From an uncultured Staphylococcaceae bacterium (GTDB lineage: Bacteria > Bacillota_I > Bacilli_A > ML615J-28 > CAG-313), in NCBI GenBank assembly GCA_964507405.1, contig CAZDPJ010000002.1, positions 13,233 to 77,232 on the forward strand: a stretch of 64,000 nucleotides of DNA. Reading direction: 5' to 3'. A program made the position numbers and the translations under genes. Below the pieces are notes generated by a model that was not told the DNA's origin, did no database searches, and saw only the letters and a program-made list of their open reading frames with translations. Shown one piece after another: positions 3,135 through 58,535 of this stretch; within the stretch, counting starts at the first letter, position 1, and every line of letters begins with the position of its first letter.

Positions 3135-3224
3135 CTAGAATGCCCAGCATGCGCCGATGATAACTAATAAAATGAATAAAACTAAGATAAAAGCATAACC
3201 ATATTCTTGACGACCTGTATTCAT
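3135..3224 (-). CDS. YjcZ-family tiny transmembrane sporulation protein (29 aa), absent from the ORF track
   Basis: Minus-strand ATG at 3224 preceded by SD tggaaggagg (3231-3240). Product is MNTGRQEYGYAFILVLFILLVIIGACWAF. The core FILVLFILL-IIGA matches my recollection of the tiny_TM_bacill/YjcZ family. Terminator lies immediately downstream. Confidence 0.65.
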   Translation of the reverse strand: MNTGRQEYGYAFILVLFILLVIIGACWAF

Positions 3225-3346: not shown

Positions 3347-3487
3347 GAAAAATAATAAGTAAAAAAAGAATAAATTACTTAAAAAATGGAAATTTTTTAG
3401 TTGTAATTTTTCTAAAAAAATGGTATCATAATATTGTTATAATGACTTATACTATAAAGTCAAATTAAATTAAAGGAGAGAAAGAAA

Positions 3488-6400
3488 ATGAGTGAAAAAC
3501 CAATGACTGGTAAAGATGTCGTTAAACGCACCCTTCCTGTGGCTATTGCTTTAGTTTTAATCGTTATTATTGCTATTATCGTAATGTCTGCGAAAAGTTG
3601 TAATAATAAAACTCCAGAACTAAGTAATGGTGATGATACATTTATTGTATTTAAAGGCCAAAATGGTGCGAAAGATTTAACAATATCTAAAGAACGTTTA
3701 TACACTTATATGAAACAACAATATGGTGTTTCTGAATTAATGAGATTAGTTGATAATAAACTTTATGAAGAAGAAATGAATCAAGTTAATCAAGCTGATT
3801 TAGATAAGTATATTGTTGAAAGTGTATTTACATCTAAATCATTAGATGCAACAACAGACTCTGATGCTGTTAAGGAATCTAATAAAAAAGAATTCCAAGA
3901 TATGATTGATTCATTATTAATGAACAATTTACTTAAAAAAGCAGATGTTGATACTGATCCTTATAACACTGCATCTAAAGTTTGGGATGTTTTACGTAAA
4001 TATTATAAATTACAATATGCACGTCGTGAATGGGCTAAAGCTGAATATGGTAGATATTTAGAAGAACAATTAAAAGATTCTACTGATGAGGCAACTTATT
4101 CAAAAATGTTTACAGATGATGATCTAGAAACATATTTTGAAGAAAATTATTCAGGTACTGTTTATGGATTCTTTATTCCATTTACTAGTGAAGCAGCAGC
4201 AAAGAAAGCTATGGCTGAAGTTGGAATTAACACATCTAGTGCTTTATTAGACGATGATGATGGTTGGGTTCGTTCTTCATTTGATTACAATGCTAAAGAC
4301 AATCCAACAGTTCCAGAAGATGCTTATTTAACACCTGCTGAAGTATATAAAGCATTTATTAAAATGTATAATGCTGTATATAGTGGTCAAGGTAAAAGCA
4401 TTAATGAAAGTGTTTATGCTGAAGAAGTTAGTTATTCTAAAACTTTAACTAAACTTGTTAATGCATTAAATACAGCTGTTAAAGATAAAACTGTTGAAGG
4501 AGATGTAGTTCTTCCTCAAACAATTACAGTAACTGGTCAAGAAGCTGCACAAGTAACTTGGGAATTAGGCGAAACTAATGAACATCTTACTTTAGAAAAT
4601 GGTAAAATTTCTTATCATACTGTAGCTACTGCTGATGAAAAATTCACATTAAAAGCAACAATTGAATTTTCTGAAAACAATAAGAAAACAGTATCTTATG
4701 AATTAACAATTAAGAAATTAGAAAACATGGAAGATAAGAAAGCTGAAGAAACTTGGACAGTTGAAGCAGTTGAACCATTTATGCAATTTAAAGTTGAAGT
4801 ATTAGAAACAGAAGCTGTAGATTATACATGGACTAATTCAGAATTAAAAGAAATAAATGATACTCTTGCTACATATATGAAAACTGAATCTACTAAATTA
4901 AAAATTGAAGATGATCCAGCTAAATTTGCTAAATCATATACTGTTAAACCAGTTTCATGTGGTAATTATTATTTCTTAATGATTAAATTTAAAGAAACAG
5001 TAGGTACTAATTTATCTGAAATTAAAGAAGAAGTTGAAAAAGCAAAACTTAATAGTTTATTAGATGGTGAAAGTGGTGAAAACTATATTAACCAAATGAT
5101 TTATAAACGTCGTCAAGATGCTGGTCTTGAAATATATGATCGTTATATTGAAGCTGTTTATGATTATCAATATACTCAATTCTTTGAATCTACATTAAAA
5201 TTAACTGATTATGATAAATTTGAAGATTCTAAGAAAAAAGAACAAGTTAATGTTGCTAAATTCATGGTTGGTGATAACAAAGTAACTATTTCTGCTGATG
5301 AATTATATAGTGAACTTGCGACTAAATATAGTGTTTCAATTTCTGTAGATTTAATTAATCAATATAAACTTGTATCTGATAAAACATTCAATACTATTTA
5401 CAACCCTTATACTGGTGATAAAGATAAAGATAGTTATAGTGAATTATTAACAAGTGAAATTGGTAATTTCCGTAAGAACTTTGAACTGGGATATTTTACA
5501 TATTCTTATCTATCATATTATGGATTCATTCCTAACTTCCCTGCATCATATGGATGGGCTAATTTCAAACAAGATTACTTTGGTGCGTTCACTGATGAAG
5601 AATTATTAATTAATTCATCATTTGGTGGTTCTGCTTATTCAGAAGCATTAAAAGCTTATAAGAAAACTTTATATTCTGATATTACTGCTATTGATGGAGC
5701 AGAAACAACAGATGTTTATAAGAAAATGGAAGAATTATATAATGAATGGTATGGATTAAATGTTGTTAACCTAATTGTTGGTATTGATACTAACTATGAT
5801 GGAACAATGAATCAACAATCAATTAAAGATGAAACTCTTAATACATTTAGTAAGACTGATTGGACAAATGAACAAAAAGATTTAGCTAAAGAATTAATTG
5901 AATTATTTAAAGAATTATTACCTCAAACAGCAAAAACTGGCCCTTATTCTCAACTTGAAGAAATGGTTAAAGTATATAATGAAGCAGGATTAACAGAAGA
6001 AACTGCTGCTCCTACTGCTGAATCTACTATTTATAATTATAATTATTTTGCTAAATACAAGAAAGCTGGTTTAGTATTAAAACTTGAAAAAGCAGCAGAA
6101 TATAATAATAGTTCTTCACTTGTAGAAGAGTTCTTAGATGAATTAGAAGCAATGTATAAAGAAGTTGTTGAAAATGGTGATGAAGGAACTTTTGATGTTG
6201 CTTATGCATCTAAACCAGTTGAAACTATGTATGGATTCCATTTAATCTATGCATTAAATACAACAGAACGTGAAGATCTTCCAGAAGTTAAAGATATCAT
6301 TATTTATAATTTAGTTCAAGATGCTGAAACATATGCTGATTCAACTGTTGATTATAAGATTAAGAAATATGAAGCAGCTGTTGAAGAATTAAAGAAATAT

Positions 6401-6670
6401 GATATTGAATACACTAGTGATTATGAAATGGATGAGGAAATCACAGCCAAAATTACTGCTTGGTATACAACTGCTATTACTGAACTTACTGGTGAAAAAG
6501 TATTATCAAAAGATTTAATTGATTATTTAAAAGCTAATAAAACTAACATTCAATTTAGTGGTGAATTTACTTATACTGAAGATGGTGCTGAAGTTAAATT
6601 TAATAGTGAAAAATTCTTAACAATTTTAGATGCTATCATTGAAGTTAGTGAAAAAGATATAGAGGAATAG
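3488..6670 (+). CDS. Giant membrane-anchored PrsA/SurA-like foldase-type protein (1060 aa)
   Basis: SD aaaggagag. N-terminal signal anchor TLPVAIALVLIVIIAIIVM. Two PrsA/SurA-N-like modules (LTISKERLYTYMKQQYGVSELMRLVDNKL; VTISADELYSELATKYSVSISVDLINQYKL). Degenerate parvulin-like strand ends (GNYYFLMIKF, MYGFHLIYAL). Confidence 0.55.
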   Translation: MSEKPMTGKDVVKRTLPVAIALVLIVIIAIIVMSAKSCNNKTPELSNGDDTFIVFKGQNGAKDLTISKERLYTYMKQQYGVSELMRLVDNKLYEEEMNQVNQADLDKYIVESVFTSKSLDATTDSDAVKESNKKEFQDMIDSLLMNNLLKKADVDTDPYNTASKVWDVLRKYYKLQYARREWAKAEYGRYLEEQLKDSTDEATYSKMFTDDDLETYFEENYSGTVYGFFIPFTSEAAAKKAMAEVGINTSSALLDDDDGWVRSSFDYNAKDNPTVPEDAYLTPAEVYKAFIKMYNAVYSGQGKSINESVYAEEVSYSKTLTKLVNALNTAVKDKTVEGDVVLPQTITVTGQEAAQVTWELGETNEHLTLENGKISYHTVATADEKFTLKATIEFSENNKKTVSYELTIKKLENMEDKKAEETWTVEAVEPFMQFKVEVLETEAVDYTWTNSELKEINDTLATYMKTESTKLKIEDDPAKFAKSYTVKPVSCGNYYFLMIKFKETVGTNLSEIKEEVEKAKLNSLLDGESGENYINQMIYKRRQDAGLEIYDRYIEAVYDYQYTQFFESTLKLTDYDKFEDSKKKEQVNVAKFMVGDNKVTISADELYSELATKYSVSISVDLINQYKLVSDKTFNTIYNPYTGDKDKDSYSELLTSEIGNFRKNFELGYFTYSYLSYYGFIPNFPASYGWANFKQDYFGAFTDEELLINSSFGGSAYSEALKAYKKTLYSDITAIDGAETTDVYKKMEELYNEWYGLNVVNLIVGIDTNYDGTMNQQSIKDETLNTFSKTDWTNEQKDLAKELIELFKELLPQTAKTGPYSQLEEMVKVYNEAGLTEETAAPTAESTIYNYNYFAKYKKAGLVLKLEKAAEYNNSSSLVEEFLDELEAMYKEVVENGDEGTFDVAYASKPVETMYGFHLIYALNTTEREDLPEVKDIIIYNLVQDAETYADSTVDYKIKKYEAAVEELKKYDIEYTSDYEMDEEITAKITAWYTTAITELTGEKVLSKDLIDYLKANKTNIQFSGEFTYTEDGAEVKFNSEKFLTILDAIIEVSEKDIEE

Positions 6671-6682
6671 GAGGATAAAAAA

Positions 6683-9415
6683 ATGAAAAATCTTAAATTA
6701 TTATTATCTCGCATTCTTCCTTGTTTATTAGTTGTAGCTTGTGTATTTACATTTGTTAGCTGCAAACCTAAAGATGATGAAGATACTTATCCAAAAGTTT
6801 CTCCTACAGTATCAGATCCTGAAGGAACATTTATGTCAATTGGTAACTATAAAGTTACTAGAAAAACTGTATATGATCGTCTTGTTCAAAATTATGGTTT
6901 AGATGTTTTAGAAGATATGATTAATAAATCAATTGTATCTAATGTTGAATTTGATTCACATTATAGCTTAGAAGATTTTGAAACAAATTATGAAATCATT
7001 AAATATGGTGCTGACCCTGATGATTCAACAAAATCTAATAAAGCAAATTTAACAGCTGAACAAATTAAAGAAGCAGACGATGCATTCCTTGAAAATATGC
7101 GTGCTAATGGTTATTTTAGCGAAGAAACATATAAAGAAGAATATTATAAGTTATCATATTTAACAATGAATTATGTTGTTAAAGAATTCAAAAAGTTTGT
7201 TGAAGAATATAACAACGATGAAGATAATGAAGAACCTTATTATTCTGAAGAAGATATGAGAGATTATTATGAAGCTAATAATCGTCCAAAAGTAACTGCG
7301 ATTGTTATTACTTTTGATAGTGAATATCAAGCACTTCAAGAAATGAAAAATGTAGGTATTAATGTTAATAAATTAAATGGTACTTGGGAAATAAACAATG
7401 CAAGTGCTACTCCTGCAACTCTAGAAGAAGCATTTAAAGCTATTTATAAAAATGTATATGGTAATGATTATGAAACTCATGTTTATACATCAAAAGAATT
7501 AAGTAAGATTTCTTCAGTTATTGCTTCAAAAGCATATGACTTATCTAAAGTATCTACTGATATCGTAGAATTAAATAAATCATATACTCATGGTCCACTT
7601 GTTGCTGGAAGTCGTTATTACTTAATGTTAAAACTTGATGAAGATGCAACTGGAATTACTAAATATGAAGATTTAACTGATAAGAGTGATATCCTTCATG
7701 CTTTAGTTGAAAATACAATCAGTGAATACTACATTACTAAAATTTTAGGTGAAGCTCATGTAGCAAATGGCTTAAAAATTTATGATGAAGGCTTAGAAAG
7801 TAAATATGTAATTGAATTCAATGCTGCATATTCTAATTTAAAGATTACTGATTATGAAGCTTTCCCTGAAACTACAGAAGAAAGTGCAACTGTTGTTGCA
7901 AGCTATCAATTAAATGGACAAACTGTTAACATTACAGCTGACCAATTATATGATCAATTAGTTAAACAATATGGTTCTGCTCTATCTTTATCTATTTTAC
8001 AACAATATTCATTATTATCTAATAAAGAATATAACAGTGTTATTGATTTCACAACTGATGAAATTTTAGACCAAGATAAATTTGATGAATACTATAAAGC
8101 AGATGTTCAACAATTCAAGACTTCTTTTGAAGAAGGTAAATATGCAACAAATGGTTATCCTGCATCTTATGGTTGGGAACATTTCATTCATGATTACCTT
8201 GGTGTTAATAGTGAAATGGAAATTATGAAGAGTATGGATTCAAGCTTAATGGAAGCTGCTAAAGATGTTCTTGCAAGAACAATTTGGACTAACACTAAGA
8301 AAGTTGTAGATGAAGAAACAAATGAAGAAACTGAAGTTATTGATGATGAAGCAATCCAAAAAGAAATGGAAAATATCTTCAATGAATTCTTTAGTGTATC
8401 AATGGTAGGCGTTTATGTTTACTATGATAAGAATGAAGATGGTGTTGCTGATCATTACAGTGAAGGCGCAAATACAGATGCATTATCTACTGCACTATTA
8501 AATAAGATTTATACTGAAGCTGAAGCTTTATATAATGCTGAAAAGAATTTAGATACTACATTTGAATCTGCATTAAGTCAAACTGTAAATGCATATAAAC
8601 TTGCAGCAAGCACAAGCTCTGTTTGGGGTACTTATAAGAAAGCTGGATTAAAAGCAACAGCAATTGCATCAACAAATTATACAAATTCTTCTTCAATTAA
8701 TGAAACATTAAAAGCTGCTCTTAAAGATTTATGGAAAAAAGCTTGGGACATTGATAGTCAAAAACTTGCAAGTAAATCTTTAGATCCTGGATATCGTTAT
8801 AAGACTGATATTGATACTATTAGTTCTAAAGATATCGTTTCATTTGAAGAAAATGTTCTTGTAACTTCAAAGAGTGAAATTGTTGCTGGTGATTATCTTT
8901 CATTTGCTTATGAAAATAAAGACTATACTAGAAAAGTATTAGAAGTTAAGGCTGTTGATAGTAACTATACAGTAACTCTATCTGCTGATGAAGCTCCATT
9001 AGTTAATTACTATACTCCATTAAACTTTACTTCTGGCGAATTATTTATCAATAATACTTCCGATGAAGATAAGAATGCCAATGTAGCTTATAAAGTAAGT
9101 CTAACTAAGATTGTTGATCATACATATTTAAGTGGTAAAACTTATAAACCTACACTTGAAGATTATGAAAAATATGTAAAAGATAATTCTTCTGTTACAT
9201 CATCTGTTAAGACTGCTATTACAACTTACTATGTTCCAGCAATTGAAAATGTATTATCAATTAATGGTGTTAGTGAAGCTAAGGTTGTTAATAAGATTTT
9301 AGAAGCATGTGAAGCAAACTTATTAAATACTTCATGGGGAGCTAATGGTGAACAAATCAAAGCTCAATTACTTCAATTAATTGAAGATTCTTATAATTCA
9401 TTAAAAGAAGAATAA
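6683..9415 (+). CDS. Giant PrsA/SurA-like lipoprotein (910 aa), paralog of the preceding gene
   Basis: SD aggagga. Lipoprotein signal LLVVACVFTFVSC. Matching blocks with the upstream protein: VNITADQLYDQLVKQYGSALSLSILQQYSL, PASYGWEHFIHDYLG, SRYYLMLKL. Confidence 0.55.
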   Translation: MKNLKLLLSRILPCLLVVACVFTFVSCKPKDDEDTYPKVSPTVSDPEGTFMSIGNYKVTRKTVYDRLVQNYGLDVLEDMINKSIVSNVEFDSHYSLEDFETNYEIIKYGADPDDSTKSNKANLTAEQIKEADDAFLENMRANGYFSEETYKEEYYKLSYLTMNYVVKEFKKFVEEYNNDEDNEEPYYSEEDMRDYYEANNRPKVTAIVITFDSEYQALQEMKNVGINVNKLNGTWEINNASATPATLEEAFKAIYKNVYGNDYETHVYTSKELSKISSVIASKAYDLSKVSTDIVELNKSYTHGPLVAGSRYYLMLKLDEDATGITKYEDLTDKSDILHALVENTISEYYITKILGEAHVANGLKIYDEGLESKYVIEFNAAYSNLKITDYEAFPETTEESATVVASYQLNGQTVNITADQLYDQLVKQYGSALSLSILQQYSLLSNKEYNSVIDFTTDEILDQDKFDEYYKADVQQFKTSFEEGKYATNGYPASYGWEHFIHDYLGVNSEMEIMKSMDSSLMEAAKDVLARTIWTNTKKVVDEETNEETEVIDDEAIQKEMENIFNEFFSVSMVGVYVYYDKNEDGVADHYSEGANTDALSTALLNKIYTEAEALYNAEKNLDTTFESALSQTVNAYKLAASTSSVWGTYKKAGLKATAIASTNYTNSSSINETLKAALKDLWKKAWDIDSQKLASKSLDPGYRYKTDIDTISSKDIVSFEENVLVTSKSEIVAGDYLSFAYENKDYTRKVLEVKAVDSNYTVTLSADEAPLVNYYTPLNFTSGELFINNTSDEDKNANVAYKVSLTKIVDHTYLSGKTYKPTLEDYEKYVKDNSSVTSSVKTAITTYYVPAIENVLSINGVSEAKVVNKILEACEANLLNTSWGANGEQIKAQLLQLIEDSYNSLKEE

Positions 9416-9424
9416 AACAAATAA

Positions 9425-9457
9425 ACACTTAATAGAGTTATCTATTAAGTGTTTTTT
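9425..9457 (+). terminator. Rho-independent terminator
   Basis: ACACTTAATAGA-gtta-TCTATTAAGTGT followed by T6. Confidence 0.8.
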
Positions 9458-9500: not shown

Positions 9501-9881
9501 TTATTCTTTTTTCCCTTTTAATGCAGCATGACGCTTAATAGCTTCAAATGTTTCATCAGATAAATCATGTTCAATTTTACATGCATCAATTTTAGCGACT
9601 TCCTCACTTACACCTAAATTCATAAAGTACTTAGTAAGTAGGAGATGACGCTCATACATTCTACTTGCAATCGCCATCCCACTATCAGTTAAAGTGATAT
9701 TACCTGATTCATCAACATTTATATATCCACTATTTTTTAGGTTTTTAACGGCACGTGAAATACTTGGTTTAGAGTAATTCATTGAATTAGCAATATCTAT
9801 TGATATTACACGTCCATTTGTTTTTTGTAAAATTAAAATTCTTTCTAAATAATCTTCAGCAGATTCATGAATATTCATCAT
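9501..9881 (-). CDS. DtxR/MntR-family metal-dependent transcriptional repressor
   Basis: ESAEDYLERILIL, winged-helix SKPSISRAVKNLKNSGYI, dimerisation helix RHLLLTKYF..LGV and metal-site-like KIEH. 126 aa. Confidence 0.8.
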   Translation of the reverse strand: MMNIHESAEDYLERILILQKTNGRVISIDIANSMNYSKPSISRAVKNLKNSGYINVDESGNITLTDSGMAIASRMYERHLLLTKYFMNLGVSEEVAKIDACKIEHDLSDETFEAIKRHAALKGKKE

Positions 9882-10003
9882 AAATTCCCCCTTTTCTTAA
9901 TTTTATCACATCTTTTATTTTTTTGCAAGGTATTAAAGAAAAAACGCAATATAATAGTTAATAATATTAAAATATTATATAATTACTTTGTGAGGAATAT
10001 AAA

Positions 10004-10498
10004 ATGAATATTAAAGTAGATATTAGTAATGTAATAATAAAAACAGAAAGACTAACCTTAAGAGGATTTGAATTAAGCGATTTAGATGATTTTTACGAAT
10101 ATGCATCAGTCGATGGAGTTGGGCAAATGGCAGGATGGTTGCCACATAAAAACAAAGAAGAAAGCCTTACTATTTTAAAGCGTTTTATTGAATCTAAAAA
10201 GGTTTTCGCAATTCTTTATAATAATAAAACAATTGGTTCAATTGGAATAGAAGAATATAAAGAATATGAATTACCTGAATTTCAAGATTATTTAGGTAGA
10301 GAAATTGGTTATGTTTTATCTAAAGATTATTGGGGTAATGGATTTATGACTGAGGCAGTTCGTGCAGTTATTAATTATTGTTTCAATAATTTAAAAGTTG
10401 ATTTTCTTGTATGTGGAGCTTTTGTTGATAATATTAGGTCAATTAGGGTACAAGAAAAATGTGGATTTGTTTTTTACAAAAAAATACAAAATATATAA
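10004..10498 (+). CDS. GNAT (RimJ/RimL-type) N-acetyltransferase, apparently truncated by an A7-tract frameshift
   Basis: TERLTLRGFELSD, GYVLSKDYWGNGFMTEAV and SIRVQEKCGF are GNAT motifs. The missing C-terminal strand (..KYNEIKNCKLSILKR) is encoded in the -1 frame up to 10548. Confidence 0.75.
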   Translation: MNIKVDISNVIIKTERLTLRGFELSDLDDFYEYASVDGVGQMAGWLPHKNKEESLTILKRFIESKKVFAILYNNKTIGSIGIEEYKEYELPEFQDYLGREIGYVLSKDYWGNGFMTEAVRAVINYCFNNLKVDFLVCGAFVDNIRSIRVQEKCGFVFYKKIQNI

Positions 10499-12019: not shown

Positions 12020-12865
12020 ATGAATATAGCAACAAATATTCTTTTCTTAGTAGTTAGTGGAGCATTCACTATACTTTATGTTTTTAATTTAATTTTAAAT
12101 TTAATTAGAGCAATTCAAACAAACAAATTAATTAAGGCTGACCCTCAATCATTAGAGGCTAAAGTTGTTGAAGTAAGACAAATAAAAAAGAGAGTATATA
12201 TAAGAGTACAATATACATCAACTAGTAACTTACAAACTTTTGAATCAATTTATGAGTTAACACAAAAAGAGTTTAATGATCAATATTATGTAGGTCAAAA
12301 ATTAAATATTATATTTCCAAAAATAACTGGTACTTCACGTATCCACTGTTTCCCTACATACCTTGAAGGTACTAAAATTAATGTTGAAGCTGGACCTATC
12401 TTCACAGATTGCTTAATCCTTGCTTCTGGTATCTTTATTTTCACATTTAGTTTATATAATATGCTTGCTAAAGGTGTGTTTACAAATAACTTACCTTTAA
12501 TTAGTTTAGATGGTACTGATTCAACTTTAACTTGGCTTAGTGTTTTAATTTTCTTAATTATTTATTTTGTTTTAATGACATATATAATGGAACGTATTAC
12601 TGGCATTTCAAAAGACCATAGTGAAAACTATTTAAAGATGTGTGGATTAAAAGCAAAAGCTGAAGTTATGACATATAAATTAAATCGTACTAAAAATGCA
12701 AATGGCGTTCGCCAATCAGAAATTAAAATTGAATTTAGAACAAATAAAGGCGAAAAAGTTTCAGCAAATATTGTATCATTTATGTATACTGAACATCCTG
12801 ACCAATTTATTGATATTCTATATGATGGTAGACGTCCTCAAATGGCAGTATATGTAAGAAGTTAA
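12020..12865 (+). CDS. Polytopic membrane protein with two DUF3592-like soluble modules
   Basis: The pattern TM helix then beta-rich module occurs twice ([22 protein letters not shown].. and [31 protein letters not shown]..). SD aggagga. Confidence 0.4.
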
Positions 12866-29089: not shown

Positions 29090-32086
29090 ATGAGAAAGAA
29101 GTTTTTATTAATTCTAATCTTTAGTTTTTGTTTACTTGCAATATGTAGTTGTAGTAACGAATGCAATGGTGAACATGACTATGATGATGGTGAAATAATT
29201 AGTAGTCCTACTTGTACTACTGATGGTAAAATGCTTTATACTTGTAAAAATTGCAAGAAAAAACTAACAAAAACCATTTCTTCTTTAGGCCATGAAAAAG
29301 AAGAAGAATGGACTAGTGATGATATGTATCATTATCATTTATGTAAGAATTGCCATGAATATAAATTTGATGAGGCTGCGCATGAATATGATGATTCTAA
29401 AACTTGTATATGTGGAAATAAAAAAGAACATAATCTTTATCAAAAACCAACAGCGATAAATACTATCTTTAGTTATACTGGTGAAGATATTGTTTTTACT
29501 CCAAGTGGCTTTGATGAAAATATAATGAGTATTACTGGTAATATTCAAAAAGAATGTGGAACATATTTTGTTATAATAAGTTTAAAAGATAAAGTAAATA
29601 GTATGTGGAGTGATTTAACAACCGATGATGTTATTATTAGTTATCAAATTACTCTTGATAAGGTTGTATTAAATATCCCTCAAAAAAGTAGTTTAACTTA
29701 TACTTATACGGGTCAAAGTATAACTTATTTACCTCAAGGATTTGATTCTTCGATTATGTCGATAACTGGTAATAACAAGATTAATGCGGGGGAATATGAA
29801 GTAATAGTTAAAATTAAAGATTCTAGTAAGTATGAATTTGAAAATGGTAGTAATGAAGTTAAATATCAATTTATAATTGAAAAAGTACAATTGCTTAAGC
29901 CTACAATTATTCAAACAAATAATTATTATACAGGTAATGATATAACAGTAAAATTAAATAATTTTGATGAATCTTTAATGAATATAACGGGAAATACAAA
30001 AAAAGAAGTTGGTAATTATGAAGTTGAAATATCTTTAAAAGATAACACTAACTATGAATGGGATGATGAAACTATTCAAAATATTACACTTTACTGGGAA
30101 ATTATTGAACAAGAACTTTTGTATAAGATAACATCAATTGATTCAAATAAAATAAAAATTAATTATAGTAGTAATGATGAAACCTCTGAAATGATAATCG
30201 AATTACCTATTAATTCAAGTTATGAATTAAATCAAGAAACAGGAGAAATCGCTTTTACTTATAGCCTAGAAAGTAGTGAAGCTATTGTTTATAATTTTAC
30301 AGGAAATTATTATGGTAGTATCACTTTTAATATTAATGAAGAAACTTCATTAGAAATTGAATTAGATAACTTTACGCTTACAAGTTATTTAAACTGTCCG
30401 TTATATATTGAAAGTGCGAATGAAGTTGATATTTCATCAAAGAAAAATACTGAAAATTTTATATATGATAATCGTGAAGAAGAAGAATCACTTAAAGGTG
30501 CCATTTACAGTACTTGTGATTTGAAAATTAAAGGAACCGGATTTTTAAGTGTTAATTCTAAAAATAATAATGGTATTCATTCTAAAGATGATCTAAAAAT
30601 TCAAAAAGTTACATTATATATAAATTCAGTTGATAACTGTTTAAAAGGAAATGATGAAGTAAAAATATCATCGGGAATATTAACATTAATTTCTAGAAAA
30701 GGTGATGGTATAAAAACATCTAATACTTCACTTTCAAAAAAGAATAATCAAAAAGGTGATGTAATAATTGATGATGGCACAATTAATATCTATTCCGCAT
30801 GTGATGCTATTGACGCTGCACACTCAATAATTATTAATGGTGGAAATATTAATATTAATACTGATAAATTTTCTGAATATTCTGAGGAAGTAACAAAGGT
30901 AAATAATAATTGTTATTATATTAGATCTACTTCTAATTATTATTCTTATTCAATTTATTATTATAATACTTTAGAAGATGGCGTTTGGGCTAATTCTAAT
31001 GGTATAACTAAAACCGTTAATGCGGGGAGAGAAAAATACTATTATTATGAAATTAATAGACCTGAAGGATATAGTTATTTAAAAGTATATATATATAATT
31101 CATCACAAACTCAAGGTCAAAGTAGTAATTACTATAAAGTATCATCACAACTTAGCATTAATAATAATTATGATACAATTGCATATGGTTCTAACAGACC
31201 TGGTGGAAGTAGCTCGTTTAGTTGGACAACATATGAAACTGTACCAAGTATGGGACCTGGTGGGGGCATGGGACCAGGGGGTATGCAAGAAGGAAATCCT
31301 AATAAAGGTGATTATTCAACTAAGGGATTAAAGTCAGATAATGAAATAACGATAAATGGTGGTGTTATTAATATAAAATCATATGATGATTGCATTCATA
31401 CTAATAATGATGTAACACTAGAAAGTGGTAATATTCCAACTGGTAATATTATAATAAATAATGGTATCTTAAATCTTTATTCTAATGATGATGGTATTCA
31501 TGGTGATGGCATAGTCACTATTAATAATGGAACCATTGATGTAGTAAATAGTTATGAAGGTATTGAAGGTATTAATGTTATTATAAATGGTGGTAATATT
31601 AGTGTGCTATCAAGTGATGATGGAGTTAATGCAACATCAACTAGCGGTATTGGTATTGAGATTAATGGTGGCATAATATATATATTTGCTGGAGGAGATG
31701 GAGTAGATTCTAATAGTCAAAGTTCATATGAAGGCATTTTATTTAGTGGTGGTAAATCGGTAATAATATCATATGGCAGAAGTGATTCTTCACTTGATAC
31801 TGAACGTGGATATAAGTATACTGGTGGATGCGTGATAGGAATAGGCATGTCAGGGGGAATGAGTAGTGAAGCCACTCATTGTAATAATTTTTCATCAATT
31901 GGTTTATCCAAAACAATTAGTTTATCAAAAGACAATTATCTATGTTTAAGTGATGTTGCAACCATTAAAATACCTTATACAATGAATGCACTTGTTGTTG
32001 TTCTTGGTAATAATGAAACTGACATTACTACTTCATCTTCATCAAGTCTGACATTTGATAAAAATGGAATTTCTTATTTAAATTAA
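29090..32086 (+). CDS. 998-aa mosaic surface lipoprotein: Cys/His-rich module, three Ig-like repeats, Cthe_2159/DUF4353-like beta-helix
   Basis: Lipobox LLAICSC. Three ~75-aa repeats (..IMSITGN..G.YEV..). Beta-helix rungs NNGIHSKDDLKI, GDGIKT, DDCIHTNNDV, DDGIHGDG, DDGVNA, GDGVDS. MGPGGGMGPGGM linker. Confidence 0.7.
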   Translation: MRKKFLLILIFSFCLLAICSCSNECNGEHDYDDGEIISSPTCTTDGKMLYTCKNCKKKLTKTISSLGHEKEEEWTSDDMYHYHLCKNCHEYKFDEAAHEYDDSKTCICGNKKEHNLYQKPTAINTIFSYTGEDIVFTPSGFDENIMSITGNIQKECGTYFVIISLKDKVNSMWSDLTTDDVIISYQITLDKVVLNIPQKSSLTYTYTGQSITYLPQGFDSSIMSITGNNKINAGEYEVIVKIKDSSKYEFENGSNEVKYQFIIEKVQLLKPTIIQTNNYYTGNDITVKLNNFDESLMNITGNTKKEVGNYEVEISLKDNTNYEWDDETIQNITLYWEIIEQELLYKITSIDSNKIKINYSSNDETSEMIIELPINSSYELNQETGEIAFTYSLESSEAIVYNFTGNYYGSITFNINEETSLEIELDNFTLTSYLNCPLYIESANEVDISSKKNTENFIYDNREEEESLKGAIYSTCDLKIKGTGFLSVNSKNNNGIHSKDDLKIQKVTLYINSVDNCLKGNDEVKISSGILTLISRKGDGIKTSNTSLSKKNNQKGDVIIDDGTINIYSACDAIDAAHSIIINGGNININTDKFSEYSEEVTKVNNNCYYIRSTSNYYSYSIYYYNTLEDGVWANSNGITKTVNAGREKYYYYEINRPEGYSYLKVYIYNSSQTQGQSSNYYKVSSQLSINNNYDTIAYGSNRPGGSSSFSWTTYETVPSMGPGGGMGPGGMQEGNPNKGDYSTKGLKSDNEITINGGVINIKSYDDCIHTNNDVTLESGNIPTGNIIINNGILNLYSNDDGIHGDGIVTINNGTIDVVNSYEGIEGINVIINGGNISVLSSDDGVNATSTSGIGIEINGGIIYIFAGGDGVDSNSQSSYEGILFSGGKSVIISYGRSDSSLDTERGYKYTGGCVIGIGMSGGMSSEATHCNNFSSIGLSKTISLSKDNYLCLSDVATIKIPYTMNALVVVLGNNETDITTSSSSSLTFDKNGISYLN

Positions 32087-55880: not shown

Positions 55881-58535
55881 ATGAAAAACATTTTAAAGAA
55901 ATTATATATTTTTGTATTTGTTGTAATTTGTGCTTTCGCAACTTCGAGTTGTAAAAGTTGTAAAGAAGAAGAAACTCCAGTAACTAAATATTTCGATAAT
56001 GAAAATGATGCTTTAGTATTTTCTTCTCAAGCTGTAGATAAAGTATTTAATCCATTCTTCTCAACAACAGGAGCTGACAGTAATGTTGTTGGTATGACAC
56101 AAATGGGATTAATTGGAAATGATTCAAAAGGTAATTATACATATGGTGATTCTGAAGCAGTTATTGCGAAAGACCTTGAAATATTTACAGAACCTGATGG
56201 TAATTATACTACTTATAAATTTGTTTTAAAGAATAATGTTAAATTCTCAAATGGTTCTGCTTTAACAATTAAAGATGTTTTATTTAACCTTTATGTATAT
56301 CTTGACCCTGTATATACTGGTTCATCAACAATCTATTCTACAGAAATTGTTGGTTTACAAGAATATCGTACTCAAGAAGAAGATGAATCTGAACAAGAAA
56401 GTTTTAAAGACCAATTTAATACAAAAGCTCATGCTAGAGTTACAGCTTTAAAAGCAGCCGCAACAGAAATATTAAAAGATAAAACTTTAGATGAAGATGG
56501 CTTTATTGAAAAACTTAATACTTATCAAGAAAGTCATGGTGAAGCATATAAAAATATTGTTGAAGACTATAAACAAGCAAAAAAACTTTTCACTGATGAA
56601 TTAGAAAATGACTATTCAAATTCAATTGATTCATGGGCTGATACGGTATTTAAAGATGAAGACGGTAAAATTTATAAAGGCTTAGGTGATGTGGCTAACA
56701 ATGTTGGTCAAGCATTTACAACAGATGTTGAAGTGTTCTTATATAACGAAGGCTATATTACTTGGAATAAAAAAGAAGCTAAATTTGAAACTACTTTATC
56801 AGTAAATGACCCTGCTGAATTTAAAAATACAAGTGTATGGACAAAAGAAAAAGCAATTCAAGAAATTTTATTTGATAAAATTCCTGATGATATTAATGAA
56901 ATCTTAACTTATTGGGCTACAGCCTCTGAATTATTTAATTATCTTTCTAATGTTGAAATGGAAGAATATTATAAAGATGGTTCAACAAGAAAATTTAATA
57001 ATATTTCAGGTATCCAATTTGCAAATCGCTTAGCACCTATTACAGTAAATGGTGTTGAATATGCAGTTCCTGAATATGATACTGCAGGTAATCTTGTAAG
57101 TGGAAATGAAGTATTAACTATTAAGATTAAGAAAATTGACCCTAAAGCAATTTGGAACTTTGCTTTTGCGGTTGCACCTATGTATTATTATTCTGATGAA
57201 GCACATATCAATGCATTTGATTTTGAAAAGAATTTTGGTGTTGAATATGGTTCAGTTGAATTTATGAATAATGTTGTTAAGAATCCTGCTCGTATAGGTG
57301 TTCCAGTAGGTGCTGGTGCTTATGCAGCAAGTAAAGCAAGTGGTGGAATTGATAATATTGAAGCTGGTGATTTCTATAATTTAGGTGTTATTTATTTTGA
57401 AAGAAATCCTTATTATGTAATGGGTACACCTACAATTAAAAAAGTACGTTTTAGTGTTGTATCTGAAAATCAAATGTTAGATACTTTATATGCTGGTGGT
57501 ATTGACTTTATTGAACCAAATGCAAGTCCTGATACAATTGCTGAACTTGCTGGTAAAGTTAATGAAGGCATTAGTTATGAAAAAATTCAAGCATCTGGCT
57601 ATGGTTACATTGGTATCAATGCTAAATATGTTCAAGATATAGAAGTAAGACAAGCTATAATGCATGCTATTAATATTGATGAATGTGTTAAATATTATAA
57701 TGGCGATGCACAACCAATTTATCGTTCAATGTCAAGATCTAGTTGGGCTTATCCTGAACATGCAACATCATATTATCCTTATGTTGGTTCACCTGTTCCT
57801 AACAAAACTGTTTTAAATAATGTAAGTAGTTATTATAAAGACTATGTTCTTAATGAAGGCTTTAAAGAAGGCTATGTAATGGATCGAAATGAACAAATTG
57901 CATATCTTCAATCATTAGTTGAACTTGCTGGATATAAGAAAAATGCCAATGGTGTTTATCAAAAAGGCGATAAGATTTTAAGATATACATTTACAATTGC
58001 TGGTCAAGAAACTGACCACCCAGCTTATAATGCATTACTTCATGCTAAAGAAATATTAAATGAAGCTGGATTTGAAATAGATGTTAAGACTGATGCACAA
58101 GCATTAAAGAAACTAAATGATGGTAAATTAACTGTATGGGCAGCCGCATGGGGCTCAACTATTGACCCTGATATGTATCAAGTATATCATAAAGAATCAC
58201 GTGCAACATCAGTTAAAAACTGGGGTTATGATGCAATTATTGCTAATAATGGTGGTGAATATGATGAGGAAGTTGAAATCCTTGATTATTTATCTGAATT
58301 AATTGAAAAAGCTCGTGAAACAGATAATCAAGCTAATCGTGAAACAATTTATGAAAGAGCATTAGATGAAGTTATGAAACTTGCAATTGAACTTCCAACA
58401 TATCAAAGAAATGATTTATTTGCATACAATTCTAGCAAAATTGATGCATCTTCACTTACACCAAAATCAGAGTTAAGTCCATATAAAGGATTAACTAGTG
58501 ATATGTGGAAAGTGTCATTAAATGTTGAAAAATAA
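55881..58535 (+). CDS. Oversized (884 aa) family-5 peptide/oligopeptide-binding lipoprotein
   Basis: Lipobox AFATSSC. SBP_bac_5-like blocks (YKFVLKNNVKFSNGSALTIKDVLFN, GYIGINA, WGSTIDPDMYQVYH) interrupted by a ~200-aa insert. Confidence 0.8.
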   Translation: MKNILKKLYIFVFVVICAFATSSCKSCKEEETPVTKYFDNENDALVFSSQAVDKVFNPFFSTTGADSNVVGMTQMGLIGNDSKGNYTYGDSEAVIAKDLEIFTEPDGNYTTYKFVLKNNVKFSNGSALTIKDVLFNLYVYLDPVYTGSSTIYSTEIVGLQEYRTQEEDESEQESFKDQFNTKAHARVTALKAAATEILKDKTLDEDGFIEKLNTYQESHGEAYKNIVEDYKQAKKLFTDELENDYSNSIDSWADTVFKDEDGKIYKGLGDVANNVGQAFTTDVEVFLYNEGYITWNKKEAKFETTLSVNDPAEFKNTSVWTKEKAIQEILFDKIPDDINEILTYWATASELFNYLSNVEMEEYYKDGSTRKFNNISGIQFANRLAPITVNGVEYAVPEYDTAGNLVSGNEVLTIKIKKIDPKAIWNFAFAVAPMYYYSDEAHINAFDFEKNFGVEYGSVEFMNNVVKNPARIGVPVGAGAYAASKASGGIDNIEAGDFYNLGVIYFERNPYYVMGTPTIKKVRFSVVSENQMLDTLYAGGIDFIEPNASPDTIAELAGKVNEGISYEKIQASGYGYIGINAKYVQDIEVRQAIMHAINIDECVKYYNGDAQPIYRSMSRSSWAYPEHATSYYPYVGSPVPNKTVLNNVSSYYKDYVLNEGFKEGYVMDRNEQIAYLQSLVELAGYKKNANGVYQKGDKILRYTFTIAGQETDHPAYNALLHAKEILNEAGFEIDVKTDAQALKKLNDGKLTVWAAAWGSTIDPDMYQVYHKESRATSVKNWGYDAIIANNGGEYDEEVEILDYLSELIEKARETDNQANRETIYERALDEVMKLAIELPTYQRNDLFAYNSSKIDASSLTPKSELSPYKGLTSDMWKVSLNVEK

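Follow-up and report, generated by a model that had tools for sequence, protein, structure and literature searches.

Two neighbouring genes in the genome of an uncultured gut Bacilli bacterium encode large proteins, P1 and P2, each of which comprises two PrsA-like units. We infer that both probably act as extracytoplasmic chaperones of the holdase/foldase type, each chain forming a covalent pseudo-dimer. The relationship to PrsA is visible only through structure prediction combined with Foldseek searches, profile–profile comparison and a hidden Markov model (HMM) of diverse family members. The window analysed is a 64,000-nucleotide stretch of DNA, in which the two genes and their flanking elements occupy the following positions.

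3135–3224, − strand: gene of a 29-aa YjcZ_2-family membrane peptide (Pfam PF09680, 34.1 bits versus a cutoff of 21)
3401–3429, + strand: promoter-like site from a consensus scan, upstream of P1 (TTGTAA, 17 nt, TG-TATCAT)
3488–6670, + strand: P1 open reading frame, 1060 aa; signal-anchored, two PrsA-like units
6683–9415, + strand: P2 open reading frame, 910 aa; lipoprotein, two PrsA-like units
9423–9454, + strand: bidirectional hairpin terminator with a 14-bp stem

The open reading frame check confirmed the position and length of both genes and the 12-nt gap between them, which holds a GGAGGA ribosome-binding site. All nine peptides quoted in the original prediction were found in the two proteins, starting at residues 64, 599, 685, 492 and 914 of P1 and at residues 57, 415, 493 and 310 of P2. 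P1 and P2 are co-transcribed as a two-gene operon, which is closed by the hairpin terminator. The promoter-like site is a pattern match alone, in a region whose match count is at or below the shuffled expectation. The YjcZ_2 peptide gene is divergent from P1; in 30 of 37 related loci it occurs on the opposite strand, ~270 nt upstream.

The proposal that P1 and P2 are tandem paralogs agrees with BLASTP, which aligns them with 27% identity over 460 aa (E 3e-38) and their N-terminal parts with 22% identity over 349 aa (E 5e-10). Segment-wise hhalign comparison yields probabilities of 99.6–100%; the two proteins are collinear paralogs.

The original prediction also related both proteins to PrsA and SurA, and was to be given up if profile searches found no such relationship. 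The Pfam SurA_N and Rotamase models match neither P1 nor P2 even at E ≤ 10, a result that, taken literally, goes against the prediction, and the NCBIfam models, including those for PrsA, recognise neither protein. Pfam matches among the relatives are scattered and sub-threshold (SurA_N_3 in 2 of 27; Rotamase_3 in 1 of 25 and 1 of 50). The relationship was established by AlphaFold (AF2) models searched with Foldseek, by hhalign comparison with authentic PrsA, and by searching PDB sequences with the family HMM. The AF2 models of P1 (pLDDT 87.2, pTM 0.70) and P2 (pLDDT 86.0, pTM 0.66) were matched to the PDB at the level of whole chains, both halves taken together. The best P1 matches are PrsA entries 5HTF and 6VJ6 (E 3.2e-4), followed by 5TVL, 6VJ4 and 7L75; the first nine are all PrsA (Listeria, B. 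cereus, S. pneumoniae, B. anthracis and S. mutans), and YacD and SurA come next. Every one of the first 17 P2 matches is a PrsA, CBF2 or PEB4 structure (best E 1.6e-4), with a probability of 1.00 for PrsA chains and a TM score on the target of at most 0.52. The Foldseek E values are modest (~1e-4) and the global TM and rmsd values are poor, as would be expected of a flexible multidomain PrsA, although this expectation is not proof. The family HMM, which represents 50 diverse members, matches two PDB sequences at E ≤ 10, 4WO7 (E 5.5e-5) and 5HTF (E 0.65), both of them PrsA. Entry 4WO7 is B. subtilis PrsA, 5HTF L. monocytogenes PrsA1, 9IBN E. faecium PpiC, and 5TVL and 7L75 the PrsA proteins of S. 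pneumoniae and S. mutans, respectively. In the hhalign comparisons with PrsA, all 16 reversed-profile controls gave P ≥ 0.37.

P1 comprises the following parts.

3530–3598, + strand: N-terminal hydrophobic segment, aa 15–37; signal anchor after a conserved KR[TI]LP motif
3620–5221, + strand: module A, aa 45–578; PrsA-like unit 1 (hhalign, DSSP)
4463–4789, + strand: Ig-like β-sandwich insert in module A, aa 326–434 (Pfam aBig_2, model, Foldseek)
5225–6667, + strand: module B, aa 580–1060; PrsA-like unit 2 (hhalign)
5753–6262, + strand: parvulin-like domain of module B, aa 756–925; DSSP order β-α-α-α-β-α-β-β

The hydrophobic anchor is 20 residues long, and a helix of residues 8–37 in the AF2 model covers the N-terminal hydrophobic segment. 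Among 27 P1-family N-termini, 3 fit a lipobox and 19 have a cysteine after the hydrophobic segment; the family is mostly signal-anchored. Module A consists of a hairpin (51–67), N helices (68–221), a degenerate parvulin-like part (223–505) and C helices with an LEIYD strand (513–551). Two collinear hhalign matches place it on PrsA, query 18–201 on PrsA 14–139 (P 9e-4) and query 443–515 on PrsA 191–258 (P 2e-4), with controls at P ≥ 0.5. The Ig-like insert, which is absent from P2, is all-β in the AF2 model, matches PKD, cadherin and Ig domains by Foldseek, and reaches E 7.7e-4 with Pfam aBig_2, a sub-threshold score; the same model hits 9 of 27 P1-family members (best E 2.4e-6). Module B repeats the arrangement with a hairpin (588–602), N helices (603–753), the parvulin-like part and C helices (934–1016). 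Its hairpin-helix aligns with PrsA (query 7–48 to PrsA 7–44, P 1.5e-3), and a collinear second match (query 290–346 to PrsA 164–207, P 5.8e-4) places YGFH on YGYH; the controls gave P ≥ 0.37.

P2 comprises the following parts.

6683–6763, + strand: lipoprotein signal peptide, aa 1–27; lipobox F-V-S-C, Cys27
6806–7876, + strand: module A, aa 42–398; complete PrsA-like unit (hhalign, residue-by-residue alignment)
7877–9412, + strand: module B, aa 399–910; PrsA-like unit 2 (hhalign, DSSP)
8792–9112, + strand: β-rich insertion, within or following the parvulin-like part of module B, aa 704–810 (AF2 strand run)

A PS51257-type lipobox pattern occurs in 25 of 25 P2-family members with Cys27 invariant, a sequence pattern that marks P2 as a lipoprotein; together with the hydrophobic anchor of P1, this upholds the original assignment of one signal anchor and one lipobox. 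Module A aligns with PrsA 7–260 over 244–245 columns (hhalign probability 93%, E 3e-7), and the alignment crosses every PrsA landmark: the hairpin, parvulin β1/α1, the GYHII strand and the C-terminal IxVxD strand. Module B includes a hairpin (404–418) and a parvulin-like part (571–713), and its hairpin-helix matches PrsA with 91% probability (E 1.1e-6). Foldseek matches of the β-rich insertion are weak and fall on phage tail β-domains (E ≥ 0.5).

An internally duplicated chaperone module had been proposed for each protein, and the duplication holds, with a sequence-level repeat that is real but short. This repeat comprises the β-hairpin and first helix, ~31–46 residues, and all four cross-comparisons recover it in one register (BLAST E 0.003–0.05; hhalign P 2e-4 to 1e-2), with reversed-profile controls at P ≥ 0.43. 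Direct likeness between modules A and B extends over ~31–42 profile columns (at most 46 residues by BLAST) with hhalign probabilities of 4–48%. The case for duplication of the whole module rests mainly on two observations: each half matches PrsA on its own, and the parvulin-like order of secondary-structure elements occurs twice in each AF2 model.

The predicted degeneration of the parvulin parts is evident at the two signature histidines: three units have lost the pair, and the remaining one has kept half of it. In module B of P1, Asn761 replaces the first histidine (27 of 27 members) and His918 is kept in a Y-G-[FY]-H motif (G916 and H918 each in 27 of 27). Both histidines are replaced in module A of P2 (Val208, Tyr313), and Gly576 and Arg705 stand at these positions in its module B. 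The AF2 models of both B modules display the parvulin-like element order β-α3-β-α-β2 by DSSP; an intact catalytic pair, the other part of the structural check, is missing. Of 189 family members, 54 carry histidine at the first signature site of module B and 122 carry it at the second, a pattern that fits descent from a functional parvulin. PPIase activity of the degenerate domains is doubtful on these residues.

The tandem, P1 followed by P2, occurs in 35 of 37 related loci, and the pair is single-copy across the whole clade. The locus is fixed between the CCA-adding enzyme/HD gene and the MBL/RlmH/UvrB genes, even for members at ~25–30% identity. A tandem conserved in this way, at a constant housekeeping position, suggests a core function passed on by vertical inheritance. 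The proteins diverge fast, with P1/P2 identities of 31–37% where UvrB keeps 75–79%, and the conserved residues sit in the NC-type helices and the hairpin. The wider family comprises at least 690 clusters, all without a functional name, 'hypothetical protein' being the sole name in the sources. No Pfam or NCBIfam model was found for the double-unit family, and no paper on the double-unit PrsA-like arrangement; these results are consistent with the claim that the double-length tandem architecture was previously undescribed.

P1 and P2 belong, as strongly diverged members, to the PrsA/SurA superfamily of ATP-independent extracytoplasmic folding chaperones, and a signal anchor (P1) or a lipid (P2) holds them on the outer side of the cytoplasmic membrane. 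Each chain consists of two PrsA-like units fused head-to-tail; in a unit, an N-terminal β-hairpin-helix and a helical N region precede the parvulin-like domain, after which comes a C-terminal helical region. Canonical PrsA functions as a bowl-shaped homodimer whose two chains lend each other the β-hairpin-helix that completes the foldase (NC) domain, so each giant protein is most likely a covalent pseudo-dimer, whose client-binding crevice would form inside one chain. The halves seem to have taken on different roles, and β-domains have been added (Ig-like in P1, β-rich in P2). Since three of the four parvulin-like domains lack both histidines and the fourth has one, a mainly holdase/foldase role is expected. 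The clients may be proteins leaving the Sec channel, with inefficient prolyl isomerisation, and any P1–P2 complex would likewise be putative.

Fast divergence relative to the neighbouring genes, the Ig-like (aBig_2/PKD/cadherin-like) and β-rich inserts, the loss of PPIase signature residues in most units and the sheer size of the proteins (~2000 residues per operon) could instead indicate a PrsA fold re-used as a scaffold, in surface-layer, adhesin or envelope-structural proteins that bind host, glycan or wall. We consider this unlikely: typical adhesin loci are variable, unlike this single-copy pair with its fixed housekeeping location, conservation is concentrated in the NC-type helices and hairpin, and Pfam and NCBIfam searches matched neither P1, P2 nor their relatives to adhesin or S-layer families. 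An inactive parvulin domain is moreover nothing unusual in a genuine chaperone, as SurA (parvulin 1) and PpiD show. It is improbable that the first half alone derives from PrsA and the second is an unrelated helical/β domain starting with a similar hairpin-helix. The narrow extent of A/B likeness, the 29–43% hhalign probability of the module B parvulin part against a 4-sequence PrsA profile and the rarity of sub-threshold Pfam Rotamase matches would suit such an origin. Against it, module B gives two separate PrsA matches in the correct order where controls give nothing, the invariant Y-G-[FY]-H opens the last strand like GYHII in parvulins, histidines recur family-wide at both expected positions, the β-α3-β-α-β2 order is followed by C-terminal helices, and a weak Rotamase_3 match of family member P0037 maps, by residue numbers, to the part of module B around the GYH strand.

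A role as a PpiD/YfgM-like Sec translocon accessory, with P1 docked on SecYEG, P2 as its heteromeric partner and nascent chains received directly, is a refinement of the chaperone hypothesis and not a true alternative. P1 resembles PpiD in its N-terminal TM anchor and inactive-type parvulin, PpiD (8ZHT) and SurA occur among its Foldseek matches, and the close clade strictly maintains the pairing of an anchored paralog with a lipoprotein one; the PpiD–YfgM heterodimer provides a precedent (PMC9643414). This refinement appears unlikely, as the PpiD match is weak (E 0.088, probability 0.06), both paralogs of locus L038 have a TM-type N-terminus, and the pair has no linked Sec genes.

The preferred reading, membrane-tethered pseudo-dimeric chaperones, can be set against three known systems. 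E. coli SurA (1M5Y; E 0.046–0.12 in the P1 Foldseek list) belongs to the same superfamily and is likewise a chaperone; of its two parvulin domains, one is catalytically inactive. SurA is, however, soluble and periplasmic, with a single N/C chaperone module into which two parvulins are inserted in series, whereas each parvulin-like domain of P1 and P2 comes with a separate hairpin-helix and separate N and C regions. PpiD of E. coli and YacD of B. subtilis (9A7D) share with P1 an N-terminal membrane anchor and an inactive or atypical parvulin of PrsA/SurA type, but their matches (YacD E 0.028) are weaker than those of PrsA, and both are single units (297 and 623 aa) without tandem duplication. 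PrsA of Bacillota is a single homodimerising unit of about 260–340 aa; P1 and P2 are 3–4 times longer, hold two units per chain, carry inserted β-domains, have lost or halved the parvulin His pair, and are too diverged for the Pfam and NCBIfam models, and P1 is anchored without lipidation. PrsA is nonetheless the best and almost sole match by structure and profile, and it shares the extracytoplasmic, membrane-tethered location, a lipobox in common with P2, and the fold and order of the unit: β-hairpin-helix, helical N region, inserted parvulin-type domain, and C-terminal helices with a strand.

P1 and P2, the two adjacent giant proteins under study, are encoded by same-strand tandem reading frames that lie exactly where the original prediction placed them, and 9/9 of the peptide strings quoted with it were found in their sequences. 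The elements of this region are:

3401-3429: promoter-like site (TTGTAA, 17 nt, TG-TATCAT)
3488-6670, plus strand: P1, open reading frame of 1060 aa
6683-9415, plus strand: P2, open reading frame of 910 aa
9423-9454: hairpin terminator with a 14-bp stem

The two genes are spaced by 12 nt, and a GGAGGA ribosome-binding site overlaps the P1 stop codon. The short spacing, together with the promoter-like site upstream and the terminator downstream, argues for a two-gene operon. An Rfam scan of the window returned 0 families, and a PrsA HMM found no canonical PrsA within its 64 kb, a result limited to this part of the genome.

BLASTP aligns P1 and P2 with 27% identity over 460 aa (E 3e-38) and their N-terminal parts with 22% identity over 349 aa (E 5e-10), and segment by segment the hhalign probability is 99.6-100%. 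As judged by sequence, the two are collinear paralogs. Each comprises two halves, termed modules A and B (aa 45-578 and 580-1060 of P1; aa 42-398 and 399-910 of P2). Module A of P1 contains an all-beta insert of ~110 residues (aa 326-434) that is without counterpart in P2.

The original prediction, of PrsA/SurA-like proteins with an internally duplicated chaperone module, had named a profile search devoid of a SurA_N/PrsA relationship as an outcome that would speak against it. Taken literally, this was the outcome with standard annotation: Pfam SurA_N_2/3, Rotamase and Rotamase_2/3 and the NCBIfam PrsA model gave no match to P1 or P2 even at E <= 10. Per-member Pfam scans of relatives detected SurA_N_3 in 2/27 (E 0.0048) and Rotamase_3 in 1/25 and 1/50, all below threshold; such sporadic matches are no evidence when taken alone. 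PDB sequences searched by single-sequence phmmer with P1 and P2, or with HMMs of the close-relative alignments A1 and A2, yielded nothing. Among the PDB sequence searches, PrsA was reached only by the more diverse profile A4, an HMM of 50 diverse family members, which gave two matches at E <= 10, both of them PrsA (4WO7, E 5.5e-5; 5HTF, E 0.65). Kinship was supported by this family HMM, by AlphaFold2 models searched with Foldseek and by hhalign, and the two-module build by hhalign and the element order in the models.

AlphaFold2 models built from family alignments were confident (P1: pLDDT 87.2, pTM 0.70; P2: pLDDT 86.0, pTM 0.66). For chains this long the pTM is high, consistent with the two halves having a defined arrangement. 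The first Foldseek match of P1 in the PDB is Listeria PrsA1 (5HTF, E 3.2e-4), followed by PrsA of B. cereus, S. pneumoniae, B. anthracis and S. mutans, and then by YacD, SurA and PpiD. For P2, the first 17 matches are PrsA, CBF2 or PEB4 chaperones (best E 1.6e-4), the PrsA chains having a probability of 1.00 and a TM score on the target of up to 0.52. The global rmsd is poor; however, even among PrsA structures the domain orientation varies by as much as 8.6 Å and 70 degrees (PMC12524980). The alignments span ~345 columns for P2 and ~400 for P1, lengths that would fit P2 module A and P1 module B as the aligned parts, although this is only a guess.

In PrsA, the NC (foldase) domain is built from an N-terminal beta-hairpin-helix, a helical N region and a C-terminal helical region that completes it (PMC12524980). 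When compared by hhalign with a profile of four authentic PrsA sequences taken from PDB alignments, module A of P2 (aa 42-398) aligns end to end with PrsA 7-260 (93% probability, E 3e-7). The landmarks of this alignment are the hairpin-helix, parvulin beta1/alpha1 (KVTAIVITFDSEYQA, corresponding to KIRASHILVADKKTA in PrsA), the GYHII strand (= SRYYLMLKL) and the C-terminal strand (LKIYDEGLE = IEVKDKDLK). Module A of P1, split by the Ig insert, yields two collinear PrsA matches (P 9e-4 and 2e-4). Module B opens with a second beta-hairpin-helix, for which hhalign against the beginning of PrsA gives 91% probability (E 1.1e-6), and in P1 a second collinear match pairs aa 869-925 with PrsA 164-207 (P 5.8e-4, YGFHLIY = YGYHIIK). 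When module A is compared directly with module B, every combination aligns the hairpin-helix in an identical register (P 2e-4 to 1e-2). Sixteen reversed-profile hhalign controls gave P >= 0.37 and probabilities <= 0.2%. The PrsA NC domain is recognized by the end-to-end match of module A, by the hairpin-helix match of module B and by the PrsA structures heading both Foldseek lists.

The central parvulin-type domain of PrsA is a four-stranded antiparallel sheet with four helices. Its sequence counterpart is the P 5.8e-4 match in P1 module B and is included in the full-length match of P2 module A. In the models, DSSP assigns the element order beta-alpha-alpha-alpha-beta-alpha-beta-beta, then C-terminal helices, to both B modules, and the parvulin element order is degenerate in both A modules. 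From the profile alignments and the models we conclude that each protein probably contains two PrsA-like units.

The conserved parvulin histidine pair comprises a His in beta1 and the His of GYH in the last strand. The corresponding residues are:

Residues at the two parvulin histidine positions of each unit
P1 module A: first position Phe/Ile/Tyr; second position Tyr (26/27)
P2 module A: first position Ile/Val/Leu; second position Tyr/Phe
P1 module B: first position Asn761 (27/27); second position His918, in an invariant Y-G-[FY]-H (27/27)
P2 module B: first position Gly576 (24/25); second position Arg705 (23/25)

The His pair of PrsA is therefore present in neither P1 nor P2. As had been anticipated, the parvulin parts are degenerate, with both signature histidines absent from three units and Asn/His in P1 module B. 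In a 189-sequence alignment of module B from the wider family, His occupies the first position in 54/189 and the second in 122/189. These frequencies suggest that the B unit descended from a canonical parvulin and degenerated in this lineage. The intermediate family member P0037 is probably the one sequence of the residue-counted alignment with His at both positions, the counts themselves carrying no names. Judged from these residues, efficient PPIase activity of P1 or P2 is unlikely. A chaperone role would be compatible with the loss of the PPIase signature, since client binding by NC domains does not depend on the PPIase domain (PMC12524980).

The predicted anchors, a signal anchor in one protein and a lipobox in the other, were both found. 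The P2 family carries a PS51257-type lipobox in 25/25 members, with an invariant Cys27, so that P2 has a PrsA-type lipoprotein signal peptide and P1 does not. The P1 family has a 20-residue hydrophobic segment that fits the lipobox pattern in just 3/27 members. A Cys in a non-canonical lipobox context follows this segment in 19/27, possibly as a relic of a lipoprotein ancestor; P0037 carries a canonical AVSC. In both paralog families the signal/anchor segment begins, ahead of its hydrophobic core, with a conserved [KR]-R-[IT]-L-P motif in which the Pro is invariant:

3521-3535: P1 motif VKRTL (aa 12-16), followed by Pro17 at 3536-3538
6707-6721: P2 motif SRILP (aa 9-13)

A word-indexed search retrieved 37 and 24 clusters from Erysipelotrichaceae and Bacilli MAGs, all unnamed or "hypothetical". 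An exhaustive profile search retrieved at least 690 representative clusters (50% identity) at E <= 1e-3, 263 of them at E <= 1e-30, mostly of 800-1260 aa and aligned over their full length; cluster look-up of 10 distant members gave no name in any source. GTDB species genomes contributed 34 loci, largely from gut or rumen samples, their records including "Bacilli bacterium", "uncultured Mollicutes", "Staphylococcus sp. CAG:324", "Erysipelotrichaceae bacterium" and "Anaeroplasma" MAGs. P2 directly follows P1 in 35/37 loci, the exceptions being a truncated contig and one very distant locus, and the pair always lies between the CCA-adding enzyme/HD and MBL-fold/RlmH/UvrB/MnmA/RecD2 genes. Locus and pair are kept even in very distant members: L038 has a tandem of 1199 and 1259 aa, and in L039 the two copies, one anchored (891 aa) and one a lipoprotein (816 aa), stand on either side of the MBL gene. 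Divergence is fast: the proteins retain 31-37% identity, compared with 75-79% for UvrB and 61-68% for RlmH. P1/P2 is a conserved, vertically inherited and rapidly diverging envelope component.

Several other genes of the window were recorded:

3135-3224, minus strand: YjcZ_2-family (PF09680) gene for a 29-aa membrane peptide (34.1 bits against a cutoff of 21)
9501-10498: DtxR/MntR-type metalloregulator (126 aa, minus strand, Fe_dep_repr_C E 1.4e-13) and GNAT acetyltransferase, between P2 and the MBL-fold gene
12020-12865, plus strand: conserved 281-aa membrane protein with no Pfam hit, between RlmH and UvrB
29090-32086, plus strand: 998-aa protein that has three Cthe_2159 carbohydrate-binding-type repeats, its gene immediately following that of a histidine kinase
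55881-58535, plus strand: SBP_bac_5 (Opp-type) solute-binding protein of 884 aa, its Pfam match limited to residues 503-769

The YjcZ_2-family gene is divergent from P1 and has its own GGAGGA ribosome-binding site. In 30/37 related loci a homolog lies on the strand opposite to P1, ~270 nt upstream of it, which suggests that the gene travels with the pair. The cassette of yjcZ-like gene, P1 and P2 is inverted relative to the flanking housekeeping genes in the related loci L001-L003 and, in the window, L038 and L039, runs in the same direction as the flanks; in either orientation it remains between the HD and MBL-fold genes. The metalloregulator and GNAT genes are absent from the matching position in L001-L003, L038 and L039, which points to a variable spot downstream of P2. 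Between RlmH and UvrB, L001-L003 have a gene of 283-299 aa without a Pfam hit, its likeness to the 281-aa protein being one of position and size alone. The SBP_bac_5 family is usually about 540 aa long, and its member here is a second enlarged extracytoplasmic protein of the window with a long unannotated N-terminal region.

P1 and P2 are best explained as membrane-tethered PrsA-family chaperones. Their homology, architecture, anchors and conservation are established by the analysis, whereas geometry, activity, clients and any P1-P2 assembly are inferred. Each protein would be a fused double unit, most likely a covalent pseudo-dimer that imitates the hairpin-swapped PrsA homodimer bowl. Internal duplication appears to have hard-wired the dimer, and a further duplication to have given rise to the anchored and lipidated paralogs. 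A more far-reaching joint reading, of a single-chain PrsA dimer and a P1-P2 hetero-complex that replaces canonical PrsA, is offered tentatively and is rather doubtful as a whole. The two units would swap their beta-hairpin-helix motifs within the chain, giving a single asymmetric folding bowl of which one half would never be catalytic and the other would go back to an active parvulin. A hetero-complex of anchored P1 and lipidated P2 would be the sole post-translocation folding machine of this reduced-genome lineage of gut Bacilli. If true, this reading would describe a natural experiment in which a chaperone dimer was fixed by gene fusion and labour was then divided between its halves.

The main post-translocation folding factor of Gram-positive bacteria, and often an essential one, is PrsA, which also serves as a target for vaccines and drugs and as a means to improve industrial secretion. 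The present family is a large PrsA-derived one that standard annotation missed and that no profile library checked covers, and a new profile model is justified for annotating roughly 2 kb-plus "hypothetical" genes. It could reveal the indispensable features of the PrsA bowl, the workings of asymmetric chaperone dimers and the basis of secretome folding in an abundant group of uncultured gut Bacilli. The PrsA/SurA kind is already known; what is new is the tandem-duplicated, enlarged and largely non-catalytic architecture. In line with the claim that the arrangement is undescribed, a literature search for tandem or duplicated PrsA, or for PrsA in Erysipelotrichaceae or Mollicutes, returned nothing relevant and no paper on such an architecture.

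Three other explanations were weighed. A re-purposed surface or adhesin scaffold is suggested by the P1 insert, which is aBig_2 by Pfam, below threshold (19.7 bits against 27), belongs to a family seen in 9/27 relatives and draws Foldseek matches to PKD, cadherin and Ig domains. However, Ig-domain surface adhesins (aBig_2, PKD or cadherin-like) are dominated by repeated Ig-like domains, whereas P1 has a single such insert and P2 none. The scaffold explanation was downgraded. That the second half of each protein is non-homologous to PrsA would agree with the B unit, the parvulin and C-terminal parts of which are more weakly supported than the A unit. Limiting the PrsA profile to four PDB sequences reduced its sensitivity for module B; a search for homologs of B. 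subtilis PrsA found only Bacillus sequences at >=85% identity, adding zero diversity. The opening hairpin-helix and the collinear second match of P1 speak for homology of this half.

A PpiD/YfgM-like accessory of the Sec translocon is the remaining rival. PpiD has an N-terminal TM anchor, one SurA-like N region, an inactive parvulin and a C domain, and P1 is likewise TM-anchored with degenerate parvulins, but it has two units; the PpiD structure 8ZHT matches P1 weakly in Foldseek (E 0.088, probability 0.06). Relative to PrsA, the preferred kin, the organization is also distinct. The PrsA foldase has one NC-plus-parvulin unit in a chain of about 260-340 aa and is a homodimer, whereas the present chains of 1060 and 910 aa have two units each. 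PrsA is further characterized by foldase/holdase and PPIase activity towards secreted clients. In SurA, two parvulin domains are inserted one after the other into a single N/C chaperone module; in both P1 and P2, by contrast, the second parvulin-like domain has a further hairpin-helix and N-type helical region ahead of it.
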